Shown here piece by piece: positions 48,751 through 61,762 of a stretch of 64,000 nucleotides of DNA. The notes beneath the pieces are model-generated. The model worked only from the letters and a program-made list of their open reading frames with translations. It did no database searches and was not told the DNA's origin. Numbering within the stretch: position 1 is the stretch's first letter; each line of letters begins with the position of its first letter. The DNA lies in contig CDROCS010000253.1 in assembly GCA_977020255.1 (NCBI GenBank), forward strand, positions 4,030,001-4,094,000, written 5' to 3'. The stretch comes from Obrimoposthia wandeli. Its lineage: Eukaryota. Made by a program: the position numbers and the translations under genes.

Positions 48751-51700
48751 ATGAACACTACGGGTATCTATGAACAACTAATTACTCAATTAGTTGAACA
48801 AAACTTAGATCGTGAATCCTTTCATGTTGGCGAACGCTTATTAGAGTCTGGTGAAGCGGCAATGTGGTTATCACGTTTCTTAACGCGCATCATTGAAGTT
48901 GCTATGGATTCTGTTCCTGCGGGTGACACTAGAATTAGTGAACAAATAGGCCTCGCCAATACCATTGTTCAGTGGCTTAGTAAGCATATTAAAGATGACC
49001 AACTAATCAGTGAAAACCTACTAGATAGCCAAGGGAAAATTCTTACTGCGCTATTTGATAAAACTAATCCTATTGCAGCTGACTTACCCAAGTACGTTGA
49101 AGCAATAATGCCGATAACAGGGCTAACACAGAGTGAATTATTTTGTGGTAGTAACGTTGGCGTGTCGTTAGAGACAGAGATAAAAAGAGAAATTCAATCT
49201 TCTGATAAAATTTACTGGCTGGTTTCATTTATAAAATGGACAGGCATTCGGATATTCAAAAAAGAGTTAGAGTCGTTTACCCGTAGTGGTAAGCATCTAA
49301 AAATAATCACCACCTCTTACATGGGCGCTACCGATGCCAAAGCCGTAGAGTTTTTAGCATCATTGCCCAACACCGAAGTAAAGCTTAGTTACAATACGAA
49401 CCGTGAACGCCTGCACGCAAAATCGTATCTATTCATGCGTAATACTGGCTTTGATACCGGTTATATTGGCTCTTCTAATTTATCTCATTCAGCCTTAACC
49501 AGTGGTTTAGAGTGGAACCTAAAAATCACCTCGCAAGAAATCCCACACATTATTAAAAAATCACTCAGTACCTTTGAAACCTATTGGGAATCACCTGACT
49601 TTGAACATTTTGATGGTGAAATGGAAAGTCGTGAAAAGTTAAGTAATGCATTACAAGAAGCAAGAGGCAGCTTTAATCCTACAACGCCTAGTTTCTATTT
49701 TGATATCAAACCACATTCTCATCAGCAAACAATATTAGAAAAATTACAGGTTGAGCGTGATCTACATGGTCGCTATCGAAACTTGGTGGTGGCAGCAACA
49801 GGCACAGGTAAAACTATTATTTCTGCGTTTGATTTTTCACGTTTCTATAATGAAAATCCCGAAGCTAAGTTTTTGTTTATTGCCCACAGAGAAGAAATTC
49901 TAAAACAAGCATTGGGTGCGTACCGTGGCGTATTAAAAAATAGTGATTTTGGTGAGTTGTGGGTTGGTAATAACAAACCGAGTAAGTATCAACACCTGTT
50001 CGCCTCAATTCAAAGTCTGCACACTCAATTTGGCAATCAACTTAACAGTCAAACTAATACCTTAGCGCTAAGTGAAGATTACTTTGATTATATTGTTATT
50101 GATGAAGTTCATCATATTTCAGCGAGTAGCTACCGCTCTGTATTAAAGCACTTTAGTCCTCAAATATTATTGGGATTAACGGCAACACCTGAACGACACG
50201 ATGGTACTGACATTTTAAGTGACTTTTGTAATGTTATTGCCGCAGAAATCAGGTTACCTGAAGCGATTAATCAACGTCACCTTTCACCCTTTCAATATTT
50301 TGGCATAGATGATAATACTGACTTAACTAAAATACCATGGTCTAAAGGCCGTTATGATATTGCCGAATTAACAAACCTTTATACGCATAACGATCAACGG
50401 GTCTTGCGTATTCTGCAAAGTCTTAGTGAGGTTATTACTGATACCTCTCAGATGCGAGCATTGGCGTTTTGTGTTAGTAAAGAACATGCAAAATTTATGG
50501 CACAAAAGTTCACGTTACATAATATTGCTTGTGGCGTATTGACCAGCGATAACAGTAAAGACCGTGAATTTATGCAGCAACAGCTAAGATCAAAAAAAAT
50601 CAATGTATTGTTTGTCGTCGATATATTTAATGAGGGTGTCGATATACCCGAATTAGACACGTTATTATTTTTACGCCCTACCGAAAGCTTAACGATATTT
50701 CTTCAGCAACTCGGCCGTGGACTGCGATTAACCAACGATAAAGAATGTTGCACTATTTTAGATTTTGTCGGTAATTCACGTCCTGAATATGACTTTTCCC
50801 ATAAATTTAGAGCATTAGTGGGTAAAACTAATCAGGCAATAGCGAAAGAAGTTAAACAAGGCTTCCCTCACCTGCCATTAGGTTGCCGCATTGAGTTACA
50901 AGAAAAAACTCAAGCAATGATCCTTAAAAACATTAGCCAAGCGACATTAAACAAAAACAAGTTAATCGGCTTAATAATCAGCTTCCAGCATGATACAAAA
51001 TTACCGTTAACGCTGACTAACTTTTTACACCTCAACGATAGCATTACCCTAGAAGATATTTACAAAATTAAAATTGGCAAGTTTGGTGGCTGGTCAGTAT
51101 TACTTACCGCTAGCAAAGGCAAAGAGCAAAACAACGAAATAGCGCCAGCGAATAAAGACCTTTATGCGGCTTATTATCGAGCCATTAATAACCGCTTACT
51201 CAATTGCTCATCAATCTCGTATTTACGTTTTATTAAAGCGCTTTGCGATAACGATTTTTCCATATCGTCAATTAGCGATGTCAACACAGATAAAAACCTA
51301 CAAAATCATCAGCAACAGTTTGCTTTGATGTGCCATTATGATTTTTGGGACAAAACAGGTAAATCACTTGGCTTTAGTGACGTGGCGACAAGCTTATTAG
51401 CACTGAGAAACACAACACTACTTAGCGAGTTAACCGAAGTTATTTCAATACTTATTGAACGACTTGAAGTGAGCGAGTTTACTATGCCAAAAGTTAACAA
51501 TTCGGTAGTAGATTCATCGCCACTTAACATGCATGTTCGCTACCCGAAAGAACATATTCTGGTCGCATTTGGTGATAGTACCTTTACTAAAAAATCATCT
51601 AGTCGTGAAGGTGTTTTAAATATCGCTAACGCGAATACTGAACTATTGTTTGTGACGTTGAATAAATGTGAAAAGCAATTTTCCGCCACCACCATGTATC

Positions 51701-52065
51701 ACGATTACGCCATTAGCCCGACCTTGTTTCATTGGCAAACGCAAAACAGCGCTAGGCCAAATTCAGGTCGAGGTTTAGGTTATATTGAGCAGAAAGAAAA
51801 CAACAAAACCTTCCTGTTATTTGTGCGTGAGCAAGGCAAAGATGAAAATGGCAGAACCATGGGCTTTGTCAACTTTGGCCCTGTCGATTTTGTTAAATAT
51901 GAAGGCAGTCAGCCGATGAATATCACATGGAAACTTAAACATCCCATGCCAGCATATTTGTGGCATGAGACGGCTAAGCTGGCGGTTTTAAAAGGGTTAA
52001 CTTGTATAAAACAGTCATTAAAACTTGTACTTAGGCCATTGCCATTTATGAAAATAGCAAAATAA
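48751..52065 (+). CDS. PLD nuclease-SF2 helicase-DUF3427 protein (SauUSI-like type IV restriction enzyme)
   Basis: PLD HxK (RLHAKSY) + GSSNLS; Walker A ATGTGKT; DEVHH; GLTATPER; DIFNEGVDIP; QQLGRGLR; DUF3427-like C-terminus (YHDYAIS..LFHWQTQN). Confidence 0.85.
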   Translation: MNTTGIYEQLITQLVEQNLDRESFHVGERLLESGEAAMWLSRFLTRIIEVAMDSVPAGDTRISEQIGLANTIVQWLSKHIKDDQLISENLLDSQGKILTALFDKTNPIAADLPKYVEAIMPITGLTQSELFCGSNVGVSLETEIKREIQSSDKIYWLVSFIKWTGIRIFKKELESFTRSGKHLKIITTSYMGATDAKAVEFLASLPNTEVKLSYNTNRERLHAKSYLFMRNTGFDTGYIGSSNLSHSALTSGLEWNLKITSQEIPHIIKKSLSTFETYWESPDFEHFDGEMESREKLSNALQEARGSFNPTTPSFYFDIKPHSHQQTILEKLQVERDLHGRYRNLVVAATGTGKTIISAFDFSRFYNENPEAKFLFIAHREEILKQALGAYRGVLKNSDFGELWVGNNKPSKYQHLFASIQSLHTQFGNQLNSQTNTLALSEDYFDYIVIDEVHHISASSYRSVLKHFSPQILLGLTATPERHDGTDILSDFCNVIAAEIRLPEAINQRHLSPFQYFGIDDNTDLTKIPWSKGRYDIAELTNLYTHNDQRVLRILQSLSEVITDTSQMRALAFCVSKEHAKFMAQKFTLHNIACGVLTSDNSKDREFMQQQLRSKKINVLFVVDIFNEGVDIPELDTLLFLRPTESLTIFLQQLGRGLRLTNDKECCTILDFVGNSRPEYDFSHKFRALVGKTNQAIAKEVKQGFPHLPLGCRIELQEKTQAMILKNISQATLNKNKLIGLIISFQHDTKLPLTLTNFLHLNDSITLEDIYKIKIGKFGGWSVLLTASKGKEQNNEIAPANKDLYAAYYRAINNRLLNCSSISYLRFIKALCDNDFSISSISDVNTDKNLQNHQQQFALMCHYDFWDKTGKSLGFSDVATSLLALRNTTLLSELTEVISILIERLEVSEFTMPKVNNSVVDSSPLNMHVRYPKEHILVAFGDSTFTKKSSSREGVLNIANANTELLFVTLNKCEKQFSATTMYHDYAISPTLFHWQTQNSARPNSGRGLGYIEQKENNKTFLLFVREQGKDENGRTMGFVNFGPVDFVKYEGSQPMNITWKLKHPMPAYLWHETAKLAVLKGLTCIKQSLKLVLRPLPFMKIAK

Positions 52066-54585
52066 GCTCTGGCCCCATTATTCTATAATTAAACTTCATT
52101 GAAACAATCATTTCGAATTAATTGTATTTTTCTATTACTCTAAATTTTAGCAGTATAAACTCAAAAGATATCCTGTCTAGAACTCAAATTATTCATTTGC
52201 CCACTCTAAGTGACTTACAAACTTAAAACATATATCTGAAATTTCAATTCGTTAAACTCAATCTTCTGTTCCTAGCAAACAGTCCCAACCAATTACTGGT
52301 TAAGAGTCCATCTTGCATGCTTCTTGTAACTGGCTCCAGTAGATAATTTGTTTTCAGCTTTGATTTTAACTGAAATATATCCTTCAGTAATGACATGTTT
52401 TTAATTAATTTATACCACTCTGAACTATTCTAAATATTTTCTTAGAGTATTCCTGAAAATTGTGGCTAGCACTTCTAAACCAAGGTTTCGTAAAAGGTTA
52501 AGCTTGTAAAATACAAATAAAAATCATCTCGAAGTACTTTTTAATGTCTTCTTTTGCATTAGCCGTAACAAAATGAAAAAATCGATCATAATCAGTTAAA
52601 ATTTCTTCATCGGTTATTATCAACTACTGGGGCTACAATCTCTGACGTTGCCTATGTTCTCGTAAAGTAATTTTTTTTTTGGGTTTACTGAAAGTATATT
52701 CGATAATCTTTTAAACAACTCTTCATTTGTCATTTGAGATTCAAATACCTAACAAAATGCTAAATATCCAGCTAATCCTCAACCATTGAACTTCTTCACT
52801 TAGTTAAAATATAGATTTGTAAATATTCTCAGAAACTCTATTTATAAACCCAGCCCCCGGTATTGGCTTTGAGATTTTTCATTATTAATTTGTGGAAAAA
52901 AGCCCAATCTACACTGTTTGAGCTTTCATTATTTGATATTCGACCTTTTCATCATATTTTTGACCTTTGCAAATGGCATATCTTGCCTCAAATTTAGCTC
53001 ACCAATAAAACGGATTAATCTATAAAATAACTTTTTTACCAAACATATGAGAGCTTTTAAGTATTTTGTCGATCACCTCTATATTCAATCGGTTTTGTAT
53101 AACAAAGTTTCTAAATTCTTTTCGGTTTGAGCCAAATTGATTTCGATTGTTGCCACCATTCATATATTCAAGGTTTCATCTGAATCTGGTTACAGGAATT
53201 TGAACTTAATAACTATTAATCTTTGTAATATGCAGAAATCCGAGGAATAAGTGAATCATCAGTGATTCAATCCGTTTCCTGCGCCAATAATTTTAGTTCT
53301 ATTAAGGATTTCATTGTAGCAACGATCTTAATAGCAGCTTTATTTATTTTTCATAAAAGACCGAATCTGGTATTAATTAAAAGCATCCTCTGCACCATTT
53401 ATTCTTGTTTTCAATTTTCATTGAAAGGTATATGTAGACGCATTTTCCAAAATTATTATCATCCCACTGAACTACAGGGCTCTGCATTTATTACATTCTA
53501 AATAGCCATTCTTTCCAATTAAAAACAATCAATTTAAATACGTGTCATTATACATTATCAATTTTCATACATTTTTCTTACCATTCACTGTTGAAAAATA
53601 CTCTTCAGCTGTTTTTCAATAATCTAATTTTCACTGAATATTCTATTAGAACTATAACGTAATCAAATCCAGCATTTTTATGATGCATGAGGGCTTTGCC
53701 CAAAGCCGAGGGGCTCAAGTATGAGTTGATATCAATATTCACAAATACCTGCATTGCCACCAGTGTTGAATGAGTTAACTAATTGATCTTTTCACCGATT
53801 TACTTGTTTTTCTTCGTAAACGGCTTATCACTATTAGAAAAAAAGGCATGCTGTGATATCTTCTGTATACCCAGCTTTTACCCGCATCTGACCAAACACA
53901 GCATATCACTCAAACATTTTACATTTCAGTAGTTTATTGTATAATCTTCAATACCATAATGAGTATGTGAATTTGCACCAATAGATTCCATTTTATTATT
54001 AACCCGCCATTTTCTCGCTTTTTAGTAATCCAGCAAACAAGTCAATTTAAATTATAATCAAATAATTTACTCTCAAGAACACTGCTCTAATTTGTCAAAA
54101 AATCCAACAACCGTATGTTTTAAAGCTCTTCAGATTAGTTGGACAATAGCTGAGAGAATTTAGCTTCGGTAATATTTTAAATCTATCTAACAGCTTTCAT
54201 AAAACCCATGATTTTGATCTATTACTTAAAAAAAAGCCGGATGACAGCATGCACCATTGAAGTTTGCTTTATTTAACGCTTGTGCTGGAGGCGGCACCGC
54301 CATCGTGAATTTGATAATAGACTCTCAGATTTATTCATTAATTTCTATATCCAAATAAGAACCTTTAAATTTTGTGATTGAGTATGCATAATTTTGATTT
54401 CGTCGGTAAAATTAGTTCAATAAGGAAATAACAAGTTTTCCATTACTACCATTCCCTCAATTGTTGCATTCTTTTCAATCGCTCACGTTGCATAACCAAT
54501 GCTTCAAATAAATCATCGACTGATGAGTTATCTGAGATTTAATTACCAGCAGCGCAATATTAGCTCAGCAAAAACTTGGCATACT
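51988..54585 (-). pseudogene. ~2.6-kb AT-rich block of heavily decayed, unidentified minus-strand gene(s)
   Basis: No long ORF, but several protein-like 30-60 aa fragments interrupted by stops (e.g. VFESQMTNEELFKRLSNILS, LIITDEEILTDYDRFFHFV, SEWYKLIKNMSLLKDIFQLK); visibly lower GC than the flanks. Confidence 0.5.
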
Positions 54586-54761
54586 GCAAGGTGTTTGGCA
54601 TCACGACCTGAGCCTGCACCTAAATCTAGAATTCTCGCATGAGCATTATTTATAACGGATTGTACAAATTGAGACCAGCTTTTATGTACCTGTTCAAATG
54701 GCTTTGACAGGTATTGCTGGGCTAGTTCATTGGCATTTTCATTATAAAATTGAGGTGACAA
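54543..54761 (-). pseudogene. 3'-truncated class I SAM methyltransferase
   Basis: FYNENANELAQQY...ARILDLGAGSGRDAKHLA, then out-of-family sequence and a stop right after motif I. Confidence 0.8.
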
Positions 54762-54972
54762 TCGCGTGGTCCTTTCGCGTGGGTATTTCTACAATTCCAT
54801 TTTACCCAAAGAGAATCTACTAATCATTGTTCTTTGTCAATACAATGCACATTAAAAAGTACAATGTCATACTTAAAATACCTATAAAAATCAGTAGTAT
54901 TGCATGATTACTAAAATCTACTTGGTTTTACATACGTATACTTATTAAACGGCAATGCAAAGCTTAATGATA

Positions 54973-55005
54973 ATGGATCTTCGACTAGTAACTTCGAAGA
55001 TGCCG
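54973..55005 (+). repeat. ATGACG-family REP-like right arm
   Basis: ATGGATCTTCGACTAGTAACTTCGAAGATGCCG; hairpin ATCTTCGA/TCGAAGAT; near-identical to 60464-60496. Confidence 0.65.
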
Positions 55006-55092
55006 ATTACAGTGAGATCCTGAGTAAACTTCATCGGCATATTATTTTATCTATTAACTCGCCCTACCCCATTAAAATTCGTCTTTAAATTT

Positions 55093-56759: not shown

Positions 56760-57024
56760 AATGAAATAACTAGGACGTTTTAGGGATTTTCTTTAACCGT
56801 CACTTTTACCACCAAGAAGACGTTAGATGGTGCGATTTACATCTGGTTTTTGAGGGCTCTTAGAAAGAAGAGACGTAGGAGGATTGGATCATACTATCGT
56901 GCCTGCATATAAATTAGTACACTTTACGATCCACTTATCCTACTTAAAACCTTCTGATTTCATTGGCTTTCACAAAAACTGAAAGGGGTCAGGCCCTGTT
57001 AGACTATTACATTGTCTTTGGCAC

Positions 57025-57987
57025 TTACTGTAACTTATCCATTATGCTTTGCCAAAAGTACTCTGCCGCACCTTCCTGCGTTAATTTTCGATCTTGGTTC
57101 TGTCTTCCCCAATGGCTCATACCCATTGATTCAAAATACAAAACGTGGTCATCTGAAGATACCGACATGTTGTCATTACATGAATTATCCGAAGCTTTAA
57201 TATCAGCCGAATACAAAATGTCACCCATATAATTATTGCCGCCTATCCAAATTTTACATTCAGAAATACTTGCACCATCATTATAAACAACAGCAGAAAA
57301 ATGCTCTGCGTCTAACCTTTTAAATCTATGGGACAACTGAGGGTTCCTGTTACATAACTCCTGTAATGAGCCTTCAAAGTAATTTGCTATATATTCAAAA
57401 GTCTGATCAATAAACTCATGCTTATCTTGATCAGTAAACTCTTGCTTTACCCTTAAATTGCTAGATCTGATTATTCTTTTTGTTTCAATGGCAGAGTTAG
57501 TGCTTAACCTTTTAGATTGACTGCTTTGATTATCAATATCTTTCGTTTTATTTAGTCGACTAACTGCGGTTTTTATCGCATTTGTGATATCTAAAAATGC
57601 ATCATGCAAATTAGTATGTTTTGAAACTGGTTTACCGTCTGTCGGGGTAGCCATCAATTTACTAAAAATAGTGCTTTGCCAATCACACGGATGCAATATA
57701 ACAGGTATAACGACCGCATCTCCCGCTTCATGTCTTTCCATAGCCCTTTGCATTTCTTTTTCATAACAATAATCAGACGCTAAAAAATAAGAACTCACTA
57801 ATAACAAAACCACATCAGCTTCATCCAAAGCTAAATCTATAGATGCACCTAACTCACTACCCGCTATAATCCTTCTATCATGCCAAGTATCAATAATCCC
57901 TGATCTTTTTAACACTGCAAGGTGGGTCTCAAGTTCATCCCGTAAATCTTCGTCTCGATGAGAATATGAGAAAAATAATGTAGCCAT
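57025..57987 (-). CDS. TIR-domain protein with uncharacterised C-terminal domain
   Basis: LFFSYSHRD, W.DRRI..G, LLLVSSYFLASDYCYEKE (candidate catalytic Glu), VIPVIL.PCDW; ~170-aa extra C-terminal domain. Confidence 0.9.
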   Translation of the reverse strand: MATLFFSYSHRDEDLRDELETHLAVLKRSGIIDTWHDRRIIAGSELGASIDLALDEADVVLLLVSSYFLASDYCYEKEMQRAMERHEAGDAVVIPVILHPCDWQSTIFSKLMATPTDGKPVSKHTNLHDAFLDITNAIKTAVSRLNKTKDIDNQSSQSKRLSTNSAIETKRIIRSSNLRVKQEFTDQDKHEFIDQTFEYIANYFEGSLQELCNRNPQLSHRFKRLDAEHFSAVVYNDGASISECKIWIGGNNYMGDILYSADIKASDNSCNDNMSVSSDDHVLYFESMGMSHWGRQNQDRKLTQEGAAEYFWQSIMDKLQ

Positions 57988-58037
57988 ATATTTTAATTCG
58001 CCTTTTAAAAAGAGTAGTGTTTTATTTCATCTAAAAA

Positions 58038-58316
58038 TTAAAATAGATTATGAGGATTAATTCGAGAGTAATTAAGTGATAACCGCTCCCAAGCATCAAG
58101 AGCTTTTTGTTCCAAATTATTTGGTTGTCGGTAGCTTCCACTTCCACTAGGGTAATCTTTACTACTCAAGAATAAGTTAATGTTTTTATGATTAATCTTA
58201 ACACTTAGTACGACTGGTAAATTTTCTACCAAACAGCGTTGAATAGAATCAAAAAATATTCTTTTATCTAATGATCTTAATTCTACTTCAATACTATTTA
58301 ATTGAACTATTACCAC
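58038..58316 (-). CDS. Small hypothetical protein in the AbiE-TIR operon (possibly 3'-truncated)
   Basis: GTG start with AAGGA SD, 12 nt after the AbiEii stop; frame continues FLDEIKHYSF to 58005 after the stop. Confidence 0.6.
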   Translation of the reverse strand: MVIVQLNSIEVELRSLDKRIFFDSIQRCLVENLPVVLSVKINHKNINLFLSSKDYPSGSGSYRQPNNLEQKALDAWERLSLNYSRINPHNLF

Positions 58317-58328
58317 GACTAATTCCTT

Positions 58329-59288
58329 TTAGTTGTTAATTTCTATTGCGTCCAAAATATCATTCGTAAATGATTTAAAAACGGTAAATGCATCAGTCCA
58401 TGTGATCGGTATACGCCCATATACCATTGGAGCAACATACTTGTTAAACCGCTCTTCAAATTGGGGATTTTTTTCAAGTAGCATTAAGCCGTATTTTAAT
58501 TCTTTTATCGGATTTTCAACAAATTGAGGATGCTGGGTACCAAACCGTTCAACATCTTCATCTATAACTTGTCGAACTAGAGCTATTACGTCTTTTAAGT
58601 TTGCACTACCTGCGCTTTGAATATAAAAAGTATCATAGATATGCCGGATTAATGCAGGATCTTCACCTCTACTCTGATCTCGGTCAAAGCTTGCAGTCCG
58701 CCTGAGCATTGAAATGATTTTTTCGGCTTGTGTACTCAATATACTGGTGAATTCCATCGCATCAACTTCGGCCTTATTTTTATAAGCTTCGGCAGTTAAT
58801 GATTTTATGGCACGAGTTTCTGTTTCATCGTGAAGTGTTGTCTCAATTAACTCTAATTTAATAAAAGGTCTTAAACATGGGGCTATAGAGTGGGATTGTG
58901 TATAACGAATATTAATTACTTGATACCTATATTCATCACGCTTAATTGGCTCACCTTCAACAGAGAAGATACTGCTTTTTTCAATAGCGTCAACTATTGT
59001 CAGATAAACTTGTTTTCTTGCTTTTTTGCAAGCACCTCTTGAAGCTAATTTTTCAAAAGCATCTTGAGGGATCAGTTTAATATCAACGTCTTCTGACATT
59101 CGATGTGTTTTGATACCAGATTTAGCCAAGGCGGTACCGCCAGAAAACACCATCAGGTGAGTATCAAATGAAAGTTCAGCTAGCAACTTTAATAGTGAGA
59201 CAACGTAATAATCTTTTTCAACAATCGCAGGGTTGCCCATTTCTAAGGCATCGGAAACCTCAATAAAGGTGTTTTGATTAACCTGCAT
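58329..59288 (-). CDS. AbiEii-family nucleotidyltransferase toxin (type IV TA)
   Basis: VEKDYYV, VFSGGTAL.K, RMSEDVD (GG-T / DxD NTase), EKI, RHIYD. Confidence 0.9.
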   Translation of the reverse strand: MQVNQNTFIEVSDALEMGNPAIVEKDYYVVSLLKLLAELSFDTHLMVFSGGTALAKSGIKTHRMSEDVDIKLIPQDAFEKLASRGACKKARKQVYLTIVDAIEKSSIFSVEGEPIKRDEYRYQVINIRYTQSHSIAPCLRPFIKLELIETTLHDETETRAIKSLTAEAYKNKAEVDAMEFTSILSTQAEKIISMLRRTASFDRDQSRGEDPALIRHIYDTFYIQSAGSANLKDVIALVRQVIDEDVERFGTQHPQFVENPIKELKYGLMLLEKNPQFEERFNKYVAPMVYGRIPITWTDAFTVFKSFTNDILDAIEINN

Positions 59289-59676
59289 TAATTGCTCTAT
59301 TACTTACGATTATTTTACGCTTAAATCGATTATTAGTGATAATTTGAAATGATGCAGGGATTTGTAAACTATCTCCATCAATACTTCGTTGAGAGAAATC
59401 ATCAAATTTATAATCAATACCTAACTTCTCAATAGCTTCTAAAATCACACCATCAGGACCACCAGGTGACGCAGGCATAATTTTTCCTGTGATGCTATTT
59501 GTTCTAGCTTTAGTGTAAAGACCATAAGCAATACGAAGTAACAAGCCATTTTTAACAAGTTTTCTTAACTCTCGACCTACTTGATCATATCCAGCAATAT
59601 CAGAGAAGTCGGCACGAGAAAAAACATATCGCTTTGAACGATTAATTCTTGTTTTTACTTTATTTGCTATCGTCAT
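59278..59676 (-). CDS. AbiEi-like / DUF6088 antitoxin (winged HTH)
   Basis: VFSRADF...YDQVGREL..LV..G.L.RIAYGLY; overlaps the toxin start by 11 nt; ATG at 59676 with AGGAG SD. Confidence 0.85.
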   Translation of the reverse strand: MTIANKVKTRINRSKRYVFSRADFSDIAGYDQVGRELRKLVKNGLLLRIAYGLYTKARTNSITGKIMPASPGGPDGVILEAIEKLGIDYKFDDFSQRSIDGDSLQIPASFQIITNNRFKRKIIVSNRAINAG

Positions 59677-59703
59677 GACAATTCTCCTATGAAGCACACT
59701 TTT

Positions 59704-59771
59704 AATATAGCAAATATACGACACCTAAACAACGCAAACATACGACATCAATCCGGTATAAAAATACGACA
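59704..59771 (-). promoter_or_regulatory. Promoter of the AbiE operon with three ATACGACA direct repeats at a 24-bp period
   Basis: Repeats at 59716, 59740 and 59764; minus-strand TTGTTT-17 nt-TATATT, with the first repeat inside the spacer. Confidence 0.6.
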
Positions 59772-59803: not shown

Positions 59804-60429
59804 TCAATTAAATAAACCACTATTTTTTTGTGCTGACGGATGCGTATCATTATAAACTTGGGTAAGTTTTTTACGGCTAACATGTGTATATATCTGTGTT
59901 GTAAGAATGCTAGCATGACCTAACATTTCTTGAATATGCCTTAAATCAGCGCCATTATCTAACATGGTAGTTGCAGTGTTATGGCGAAATAAATGACAAG
60001 CTCCTTTGCGGTCAAACCCTGCGAGCTTTACATACTGAGAGGCCATATAAGAAAGCTTTCCCGGTACATAGCGTTACCATTGTTTACTAAGAATAGTGCC
60101 TTTCCTGAGCTTATAAATGCAAACATTGGGCGTATTTTTCCGAGATAAAAAGCTAGCCATTCACAACCCCTGAGGCTCATTGGAACTAATCGTTCTTTCT
60201 TACCTTTACCGTGAACACGAACCATGCTTCCATTGAAATCAATATCATCAACATTAAGTTTTACTAATTCTCCTCGACGAATTCCAAAAGCAAAAAAACA
60301 CTCAAGTATTGCTCTGTCCCGTAATCCTTTAATCCCAAAAAGCAATGGCTGCTCTAAAATGACTTCTATCTCCTCTACTGTATATAGTGCTTTAGGTATT
60401 TGTTCTCCTTTGCTTGGTAATTCAATGCC
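59804..60429 (-). pseudogene. XerC/XerD-like tyrosine recombinase, 5'-truncated and frameshifted
   Basis: GIELP..., LRDRAILE.F.AFGIRRGEL, HGKGKKER; frameshift near 60060-60065; then [33 protein letters not shown]-terminal domain absent. Confidence 0.88.
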
Positions 60430-60496
60430 ATCCTATGTGTTTGTCGGTCTAAGCTCGAAGACAATGGATCTTCGACTAGAGACTTCGAAGATGACG
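60426..60496 (+). repeat. CGTCAT/ATGACG REP-like doublet at the recombinase breakpoint
   Basis: Degenerate left arm TGCCATCCTATGTGTTTGTCGG plus right arm ATGGATCTTCGACTAGAGACTTCGAAGATGACG. Confidence 0.65.
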
Positions 60497-60630
60497 TTAT
60501 TAATTAACACCTCAATAAAATGATGTTATAGATTAACTATTGAGTGAAATACTTAGGAAACAAAAGAAATTATTTTTCCAGCTAAAGGTTCTATTATTAA
60601 TATAACCTTTATTTTCATTAACAAAGAGCC

Positions 60631-61046: not shown

Positions 61047-61352
61047 TTAAACTGCCACGTTCGCTGTATTAGGCTCTACCTTTAACTTTAGCCCTAAACC
61101 ATGAATCACTTGAGTAAAGCTTGTTAATTTAGGGTTACCTGTAGATGAAAGCATTTTGTACATACTTTCTCGTCCTAAATTAGAGCGTGCAGCTAAGCCA
61201 CTAATACCATCTTCTTGCGCTTCAGCAATATTTCTCAACACCATTAAAATGACTGAAGCATCGCCATCTTCAAACGCTTCACTTAAATATTCGGCTGCTA
61301 CTTCTGGATCCCGTAGTAACTCATTATGAGTTTGTCTTACATTACGTGTCAT
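61047..61352 (-). CDS. Putative addiction-module antidote (HTH_XRE)
   Basis: L..PE.AAEYL.EA.E.GD...L..LRNIAEA..GISGLA..S.LGRES.YK.LS..GNP.L; ATG at 61352 with GAGGAG SD. Confidence 0.88.
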   Translation of the reverse strand: MTRNVRQTHNELLRDPEVAAEYLSEAFEDGDASVILMVLRNIAEAQEDGISGLAARSNLGRESMYKMLSSTGNPKLTSFTQVIHGLGLKLKVEPNTANVAV

Positions 61353-61383
61353 TTTTATTTCTCCTCTTATGATTTTTCCAACA

Positions 61384-61686
61384 TTATTTTGCTTTCTTAA
61401 TGTCTTTAGACTGTGTTGATTTATCACCGCCACACAAAAGCAAATATACCTGCTGACCTTCTTTACCGTAATACACTCGATAACCAGGCCCATAATGAAG
61501 TCTAAGTTCACTTAGTCCATCGCCAATGGGTTCAACGTCACCAAATAAACCCAACTCCATTTTATCGATTTGGATCATGACTTTAGCTTTTGCTTTAGCA
61601 TCTTTTAGGCTTTTCAACCAATCTGCATAAAGGCTTTTACCTGAATCATCAATGTATTCATTTATTGTGTTGTTTATATCTCGCAT
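61384..61686 (-). CDS. RelE/ParE(HigB)-type addiction-module killer, apparently nonsense-truncated
   Basis: GNFGD-like GLFGDVEPIGDGLSELRLHYGPGYRVYY..LLLCGGDKSTQ.KDI.KAK*; frame continues CWKNHKRRNKNDT to 61342. Confidence 0.85.
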   Translation of the reverse strand: MRDINNTINEYIDDSGKSLYADWLKSLKDAKAKAKVMIQIDKMELGLFGDVEPIGDGLSELRLHYGPGYRVYYGKEGQQVYLLLCGGDKSTQSKDIKKAK

Positions 61687-61762
61687 GCACCAATCGTATC
61701 CCAAAGGATACATAAAGAAAATTTTACTTTTAATCTAAAAACAAAAACGTCCATTGTACGCA

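Follow-up and report, generated by a model that had tools for sequence, protein, structure and literature searches.

AbiE systems are pairs of toxin and antitoxin, classed as type IV, in which a winged-helix antitoxin and a nucleotidyltransferase of the DNA polymerase β type are encoded as a bicistron (Dy et al. 2014, PMC3985639). AbiE operons are reported to repress their own promoter and to be able to stabilise plasmids (PMC3985639; PMC7725324). Defences built on TIR domains are, as such, well known. The types TIR-I to TIR-IX have been distinguished (Wang et al., PMC11350192, published in 2024), 29 putative types of Thoeris have been listed (Yirmiya et al., 10.64898/2025.12.03.692087), and DUF4062 has been described as an anti-phage NAD+-cleaving enzyme (NADase) in a paper that also deals with Vulcan (NIR-HEAT), a fusion of NADase and sensor (10.64898/2026.09.04.749371). 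Here, we have analyzed a stretch of 64,000 nucleotides (nt), called the window, at positions 4,030,001 to 4,094,000 of contig CDROCS010000253.1 from the Obrimoposthia wandeli assembly GCA_977020255.1. Genes of the types abiEi and abiEii, a small gene and a gene for a TIR protein lie together on its minus strand at 57025-59676; window positions are used throughout.

The contig has a length of 4.68 Mb within an assembly of 1.35 Gb and is bacterial, as indicated by tRNA clusters and housekeeping genes. A preliminary description of the window had proposed the four genes as a candidate anti-phage module coupling AbiE to a small open reading frame (ORF) and a stand-alone TIR protein. The coordinates given for the arrangement were confirmed: the genes are co-oriented and tightly packed, abiEi and abiEii overlap by 11 nt (59278-59288), the small ORF starts 12 nt after abiEii, and a Shine-Dalgarno sequence, AAGGA, lies 8 nt before its GTG. 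The TIR gene does not stand alone, however; it is paired with the small gene. This conserved unit had been overlooked, as had the truncation of the small gene in this strain.

The small gene and its TIR-Y4lF partner

The TIR gene (57987-57025, minus strand) encodes a protein of 320 amino acids (aa). Residues 1-145 (57553..57987) form the TIR domain (Pfam TIR_2, E-value 1e-13; VIA Z-score of 16 to TIR domains). The motif YCYEKE at residues 73-78 is intact, as described before; E78 at the catalytic position is invariant in 105 aligned relatives, and in the family profile it falls on the glutamate of WCWD-E in Cat1, a TIR NADase. The C-terminal domain of about 170 aa had been called unassigned; in fact, it belongs to Pfam family PF27176 (TIRY4lF), found in all 120 listed of 261 relatives of residues 150-320, the nearest being 98% identical. 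The domain covers residues 172-320 approximately (57025..57474, minus strand) and is predicted to be a sensor or oligomerisation part. An AlphaFold model (pLDDT 89.7) consists of the TIR domain, a disordered linker at residues 160-169 and a compact helix/six-strand/helix domain; fold searches with the whole protein were filled by the TIR domain and were uninformative on Y4lF.

Proteins of this PF27176/TIR type are present in at least 546 genome stretches. A full-length homologue with 45% identity and the same TIR plus PF27176 architecture is encoded on pNGR234a of Sinorhizobium fredii NGR234 (WP_010875294.1 region). We take it to be gene y4lF, although it is annotated in its record as a TIR domain-containing protein. 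In contrast to the locus studied here, the NGR234 gene is followed by a gene for a partner of about 160 aa and is not preceded by a 100-aa gene; no function for it was found in the literature searched. A full-length solo homologue of E. coli (WP_112826263.1), 42% identical, stands alone beside hsdM. Additionally, E. coli has broken TIR-Y4lF alleles beside hsdM (loci L204 and L205), and 96 of 5426 genomes matched the TIR part. In two ice metagenomes contigs break exactly at 57988, after the small gene and before the start of the TIR gene; the slot may hold several TIR alleles or a different gene.

The small gene (58038..58316, minus strand) encodes 92 aa here and is a divergent member of a family of about 100 aa. 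The length given in the preliminary description is correct for this strain; as a gene, the ORF is a prematurely stopped copy. A TAA occupies codon 93, and relatives with 98% identity have 103 aa. The old 3' end past this stop (58005..58037, minus strand) codes for the final part of the last helix with the invariant F94, and the old frame runs to 58005, leaving 17 nt to the start of the TIR gene. In sequencing runs X2, X16 and X9 position 58040 belongs to a sense codon, and the gene is whole in these three samples; the stop is present in a run that agrees with the window in every letter and from which the window may have been derived.

A profile search assigned 684 clusters at 50% identity to the small family, nearly all members being of about 100 aa among the 150 listed. 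Conserved residues are W20, C36, C55, R63, E69, W76, L81 and F94. The protein of this strain, which has a 97% identical relative named from a metagenome-assembled genome (MAG) of Colwellia sp., lacks W20, C36 and C55; it is 26% identical to the other members, which average 50%, whereas the Colwellia TIR domain shows no unusual divergence (61% against 65%). Pfam gave no credible match in 124 family members, the best being an E-value of 0.002 for one member. The small protein, modelled with a pLDDT of 89.5, has no membrane helix and belongs to no enzyme family. Foldseek found no PDB match at E ≤ 0.001, the best VIA match was to a designed protein with a Z-score of 4.5, a viral library returned no match, and all Atlas feature matches stayed below 0.9; these searches do not prove the fold to be new. 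The small gene was not found in plasmids. The small protein probably serves as an optional helper, and in this strain it is probably inactive.

Genomic neighbourhoods were compared in 162 loci. They comprise 80 GTDB stretches matching the TIR gene (the best of 546), 80 metagenome stretches matching the small family (the best of 176), and two single loci. The small-family loci are related by descent, and the seed against which they were ranked was itself adjacent to a TIR gene. A TIR or TIR-like neighbour was found for the small gene in 61 of these 80. A gene of the TIR-Y4lF type lies directly downstream in 42 loci (Y4lF seen in 37, cut by the contig end in five); a Y4lF domain of another lineage adjoins in nine (two downstream, six upstream, one convergent; TIR_2 confirmed in six); one locus has a cut TIR_2, seven a DUF4062 protein or its cut end, and two a ThsB TIR. 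After grouping at 70% identity a TIR-like neighbour remained in 25 of 35 groups. Furthermore, an even draw of 300 genomes yielded one new copy of the small gene, with TIR-Y4lF directly behind it. The conserved unit is the small gene together with TIR-Y4lF, and this is a real pair.

Seen from the TIR gene, the association is much weaker. Relatives of the small gene with 26-31% identity lie directly upstream of TIR-Y4lF in five of the 80 GTDB loci, four of these being named MAGs of Desulfobacterota type; in 12 loci an unrelated gene of about 160 aa follows directly downstream, and 63 have neither. No third recurring gene was found near TIR-Y4lF. The link is one-sided: the small gene is usually found by a TIR-like gene, the TIR gene usually without the small gene.

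Two further pairings were observed. The Pfam-less protein of about 160 aa encoded directly after TIR-Y4lF in the 12 loci occurs mostly in Alphaproteobacteria, NGR234 included (L165:3983-4468), and forms with TIR-Y4lF another candidate two-gene TIR system. DUF4062/NIR proteins that have a C-terminal domain without assigned family are further partners of the small family (loci L123, L125, L132, L133, L147, L149 and L150). Profile comparisons revealed no kinship of the tails of these DUF4062 proteins with Y4lF, nor of the small family with the 160-aa partner or with Y4lF.

The AbiE pair and the slot behind it

The antitoxin/repressor gene of the abiEi type (59278..59676, minus strand; 132 aa from ATG) encodes a DUF6088 winged-helix protein (Pfam PF19570, E-value 2e-6), and abiEii (58329..59288, minus strand) encodes a nucleotidyltransferase toxin of 319 aa (Pfam PF08843, E-value 7e-25). 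The Pfam and PADLOC searches that had been proposed for each protein gave full-length matches for both, to PADLOC models PDLC02229 (AbiEi, E-value 2e-47) and PDLC02297 (E-value 3e-118), respectively; the TIR protein matched the ThsB model PDLC00420 end to end (E-value 5e-117). AbiEii has motifs I-III (GG; R..DhD; K..R) with G50-G51, R63, D67, D69 and K190, the latter within EKIISMLRR starting at residue 189. At the position of motif IV, residue 215, it reads RHIYD instead of +DxxD; R-H-x-Y-D was found in 20 of 22 aligned rows of the clade, the other two being gapped.

Upstream of abiEi three 12-nt direct repeats lie 24 nt apart (59712..59771, minus strand) and are a candidate operator of the abiE promoter. 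Their 8-mer core has only these three sites in the window and occurs twice, also 24 nt apart, upstream of a Pseudoalteromonas homologue; one 10-nt inverted repeat is present upstream of abiEi as well. The pair resembles AbiE, as portrayed by Dy et al. (PMC3985639), in its bicistron of winged-helix antitoxin and polymerase-type nucleotidyltransferase, in motifs I-III, in having repeats at its putative promoter and in its location on a mobile element. It differs in the short DUF6088 antitoxin of 132 aa, in the clade-wide RHIYD at the position of motif IV and in candidate operator repeats that are mainly direct.

The proposed coupling of AbiE to the TIR and small genes was not supported. In none of the 162 loci did a profile search place abiEii immediately next to either of these two genes; the AbiEii profile matched in three of them, each time 1-3 kb from the TIR gene, and the AbiEi profile in none. 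Conversely, 20 AbiEii loci were inspected, 15 of them from 13 of 400 Gammaproteobacteria with 1.5-kb flanks and five from 52 plasmid records; profiles of TIR, Y4lF and the small gene gave no match in these 20. Outside near-identical strains the TIR and small genes were not seen adjacent to AbiE in these loci; as regards co-occurrence, this is the outcome that the preliminary description had named as refuting its proposal. Conservation of all four genes as a unit was rejected on the missing adjacency of abiEii in the 162 related loci. We consider the stretch to be probably two independent units, an ordinary AbiE pair and a small gene/TIR-Y4lF pair.

In four of the five plasmids read (Vibrio and Shewanella; L195-L198) hsdM of a type I restriction-modification (R-M) system starts 7-19 nt after abiEii, and in two of the five a recombinase gene lies directly before DUF6088. 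In sample X10 one contig with abiEii departs from the window at 58344. This AbiE clade may have a hotspot of defence genes in the slot behind it.

Proposed mode of action and competing explanations

The joint explanation that we favour, and hold to be somewhat better founded than its negation, combines an ordinary AbiE pair with a small gene/TIR-Y4lF pair whose TIR protein likely senses phage through Y4lF and is predicted to cleave NAD+, aborting the infection, with the small protein as an optional helper. AbiE would supply a self-repressed promoter and stabilise the island, and the slot behind it would take swappable defence cargo. A phage cue would bring Y4lF domains together; on their assembly the TIR domains would assemble in turn and hydrolyse NAD+ through E78, leading to abortive infection. 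The small protein would tune the TIR enzyme as an extra sensor, adaptor or damper and would be needed neither for killing nor for survival. Because the TIR gene mostly occurs without a partner and its product has a second domain of its own, sensor and effector in one chain is the simplest reading. The occurrence of the small gene beside DUF4062 and ThsB genes suggests that its product acts on what they have in common, the TIR-like enzyme or the product of that enzyme.

This explanation retains parts of the defence cassette on a mobile element that had been proposed: the island is there, in decayed form, the TIR protein is most simply a direct NADase, and AbiE as a possible stabiliser fits the literature. 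The setting of relatives is often rich in defence genes. Scans of chosen subsets of 74, 52 and 84 neighbours revealed type I, II and IIG R-M, Mrr, BrxL, GajB, SoFic, PD-T7-5 and parts of CBASS. Like TIR-I to TIR-IX and Vulcan, the TIR-Y4lF protein joins a NADase-type fold to a candidate sensor domain, has no cyclase and sits in a defence-island setting; unlike them, it has a Y4lF domain and a 100-aa partner, neither of which is named in the passages available on these systems (PMC11350192; 10.64898/2026.09.04.749371). SpbK (PMC12847820) is grouped with these single- and two-protein TIR defences. The E. coli homologue may be among the candidates surveyed by Wang et al., and the putative Thoeris types of Yirmiya et al. 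could include the pair. Our searches returned no relevant paper on y4lF, PF27176, TIRY4lF, PDLC00420 or this pair, and the pair is absent from the passages of PMC13069673 and 10.1101/2025.01.08.631966.

Several observations weigh against the favoured explanation. The share of 61 in 80 leans high, given the TIR-adjacent seed and the relatedness of the loci; eight of the 80 had flanks of at least 600 nt without a TIR-like neighbour, and 11 had short flanks. Widening the draw to 400 genomes added one broken small-gene copy with no TIR within 1.5 kb, and the one viral copy of the family lies between portal and S49 head-protease genes of a phage contig (L164:4001-4300), again with no TIR. Short loci are common among the metagenome stretches, and the flanks extend over only 1.5 kb in 15 of the 20 AbiEii loci. 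A contig of 3430 nt from run X16 covers 57402-59747, so that all four genes are contiguous in a near-identical strain; this shows only joint inheritance among near-identical Colwellia. The sensor role of Y4lF is predicted from domain architecture only, and the ThsB label of PDLC00420 suggests signalling. Finally, Wang et al. report activity for only 12 of 32 E. coli TIR candidates (PMC11350192).

An extension of the favoured explanation, possible and distinctly less probable, is that the family of about 100 aa represents a new portable regulator of TIR-fold NAD+-cleaving enzymes, namely two TIR-Y4lF lineages, DUF4062/NIR and ThsB, and would bind the TIR fold or its nucleotide product; the two-gene system would then be undescribed and Y4lF a new phage sensor. 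If true, a function would be given to the widespread orphan domain PF27176 and to the Pfam-less family of small proteins. The pair would also provide a small, clonable two-gene case for studying the activation or restraint of bacterial TIR NADases, and defence cargo could be sought in the slot behind this AbiE clade.

Chief among the rivals is signalling of the Thoeris type: the TIR protein would make a messenger derived from ADP-ribose that is read by a distant effector or by the small protein. We regard it as unlikely. It draws on the whole-protein fit to the ThsB model together with the catalytic glutamate, on two small-gene loci beside a ThsB TIR and one beside a caspase gene, on Desulfocapsa, where ThsB and SLATT follow the pair, and on the unnamed effectors of some putative Thoeris types in the available part of Yirmiya et al. 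(10.64898/2025.12.03.692087). Unlike ThsB, however, the protein carries a Y4lF domain and is adjoined by neither ThsA nor another known effector, and the 84 neighbours scanned with PADLOC did not include ThsA; moreover, the 63 TIR-Y4lF loci with neither recurring partner and a small protein devoid of membrane helix and enzyme family speak against this rival. The operon genes include no Thoeris effector (SIR2-SLOG, TM-Macro, SLOG or caspase), the first two of which the preliminary description had already noted as missing, together with a cyclase; no cyclase was found among 12 ORFs scanned at 48.7-61.7 kb. SIR2_2 (PF13289) had six matches in the assembly and none on the contig of the window; searches with PF20016 and PF18185 were empty, with controls that were likewise silent. 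The second domain of the TIR protein is PF27176 and not STING, SAVED or a domain binding cyclic nucleotide monophosphates, as in TIR effectors of CBASS and Pycsar.

Less probable still is that the small protein acts as an antitoxin restraining a constitutively active TIR NADase. The gene order, small gene first and enzyme gene second, is tight in 38 of 42 loci (gap between profile hits 8-46 nt), as would suit such a pair, and the two proteins show correlated sequence distances (rho 0.42-0.48, 16 pairs), which shared descent also explains. Against it, 75 of the 80 TIR-Y4lF loci are without the small gene, and in this strain its product is cut short and has lost W20, C36 and C55 while the TIR gene is intact. 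We give slightly less credit to the view that the genes have merely been left behind in a decaying island and play no part in defence at present. The recombinase, the Rhs relic and the small gene are indeed broken, and the low identity of the Colwellia small protein points the same way; however, the frames and catalytic residues of TIR, abiEii and abiEi are intact, and three other samples have a complete small gene. Least probable of all is one four-gene system with AbiE and TIR acting together, which co-orientation, tight packing, the absence of a terminator-like site between the genes and their contiguity in another strain would allow, and which is contradicted by the lack of adjacent co-occurrence in 162 plus 20 outside loci and by type I R-M in the slot of four of five plasmids.

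Setting of the island

The G+C content of the four genes is 29-37%, as compared to 42-43% in the flanking genes for an alanine symporter and an aminotransferase. Upstream lies the remnant of an XerC-like tyrosine recombinase (59804..60430, minus strand), of which only the C-terminal half is left; two fragments matched PF00589/NF002331, with a frameshift and an internal stop, in agreement with the broken recombinase noted before. A dispersed chromosomal repeat of 38 bp (60459..60498) is located where the recombinase gene is truncated. It is partly palindromic and has five further copies on the contig, with one at 54960-55028 in the window; it had no Rfam match, and an Rfam search of the window at 52-62 kb gave no match at all. 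At the other edge, shortly behind the TIR gene, an Rhs-core relic of about 50 nt (56885..56933, minus strand) shows DNA matches of 84-97% within RHS/polymorphic-toxin genes of Alteromonadaceae plasmids, and its translation carries a stop. A Paraglaciecola plasmid has an Rhs gene with a tyrosine recombinase nearby. With the recombinase remnant upstream and the Rhs relic behind the TIR gene, the block thus sits in a decayed XerC/Rhs locus. Neither att sites nor an empty site were found, the latter because no close Colwellia genome was among the 400 Gammaproteobacteria drawn.

Scans for promoters and terminators stayed at chance level (12 against 16.2 and 2 against 2.7, respectively). Short pieces of abiEi, abiEii and the TIR gene were detected in two metatranscriptome runs, in small shares; they do not evidence co-transcription.

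The Colwellia-like chromosome of 4.68 Mb lies inside an assembly of 6912 contigs, and bacterial-type recombinase and SIR2_2 genes were also found on other contigs. A second defence gene was observed 5 kb from the block at 48751-52065 (plus strand); it encodes a PLD-helicase-DUF3427 protein that matched the PADLOC model of type IV methyl-directed restriction with an E-value of 6e-217. The region from 52100 to 54800 has a G+C content of 31-35% and no long ORFs; it contains a methyltransferase fragment at 54543-54761 and apparently other broken frames. Adjoining the island on its other side, at 61047-61713 (minus strand), genes for a Gp49/RelE-like toxin and an HI1420-type antidote form a second toxin-antitoxin pair.

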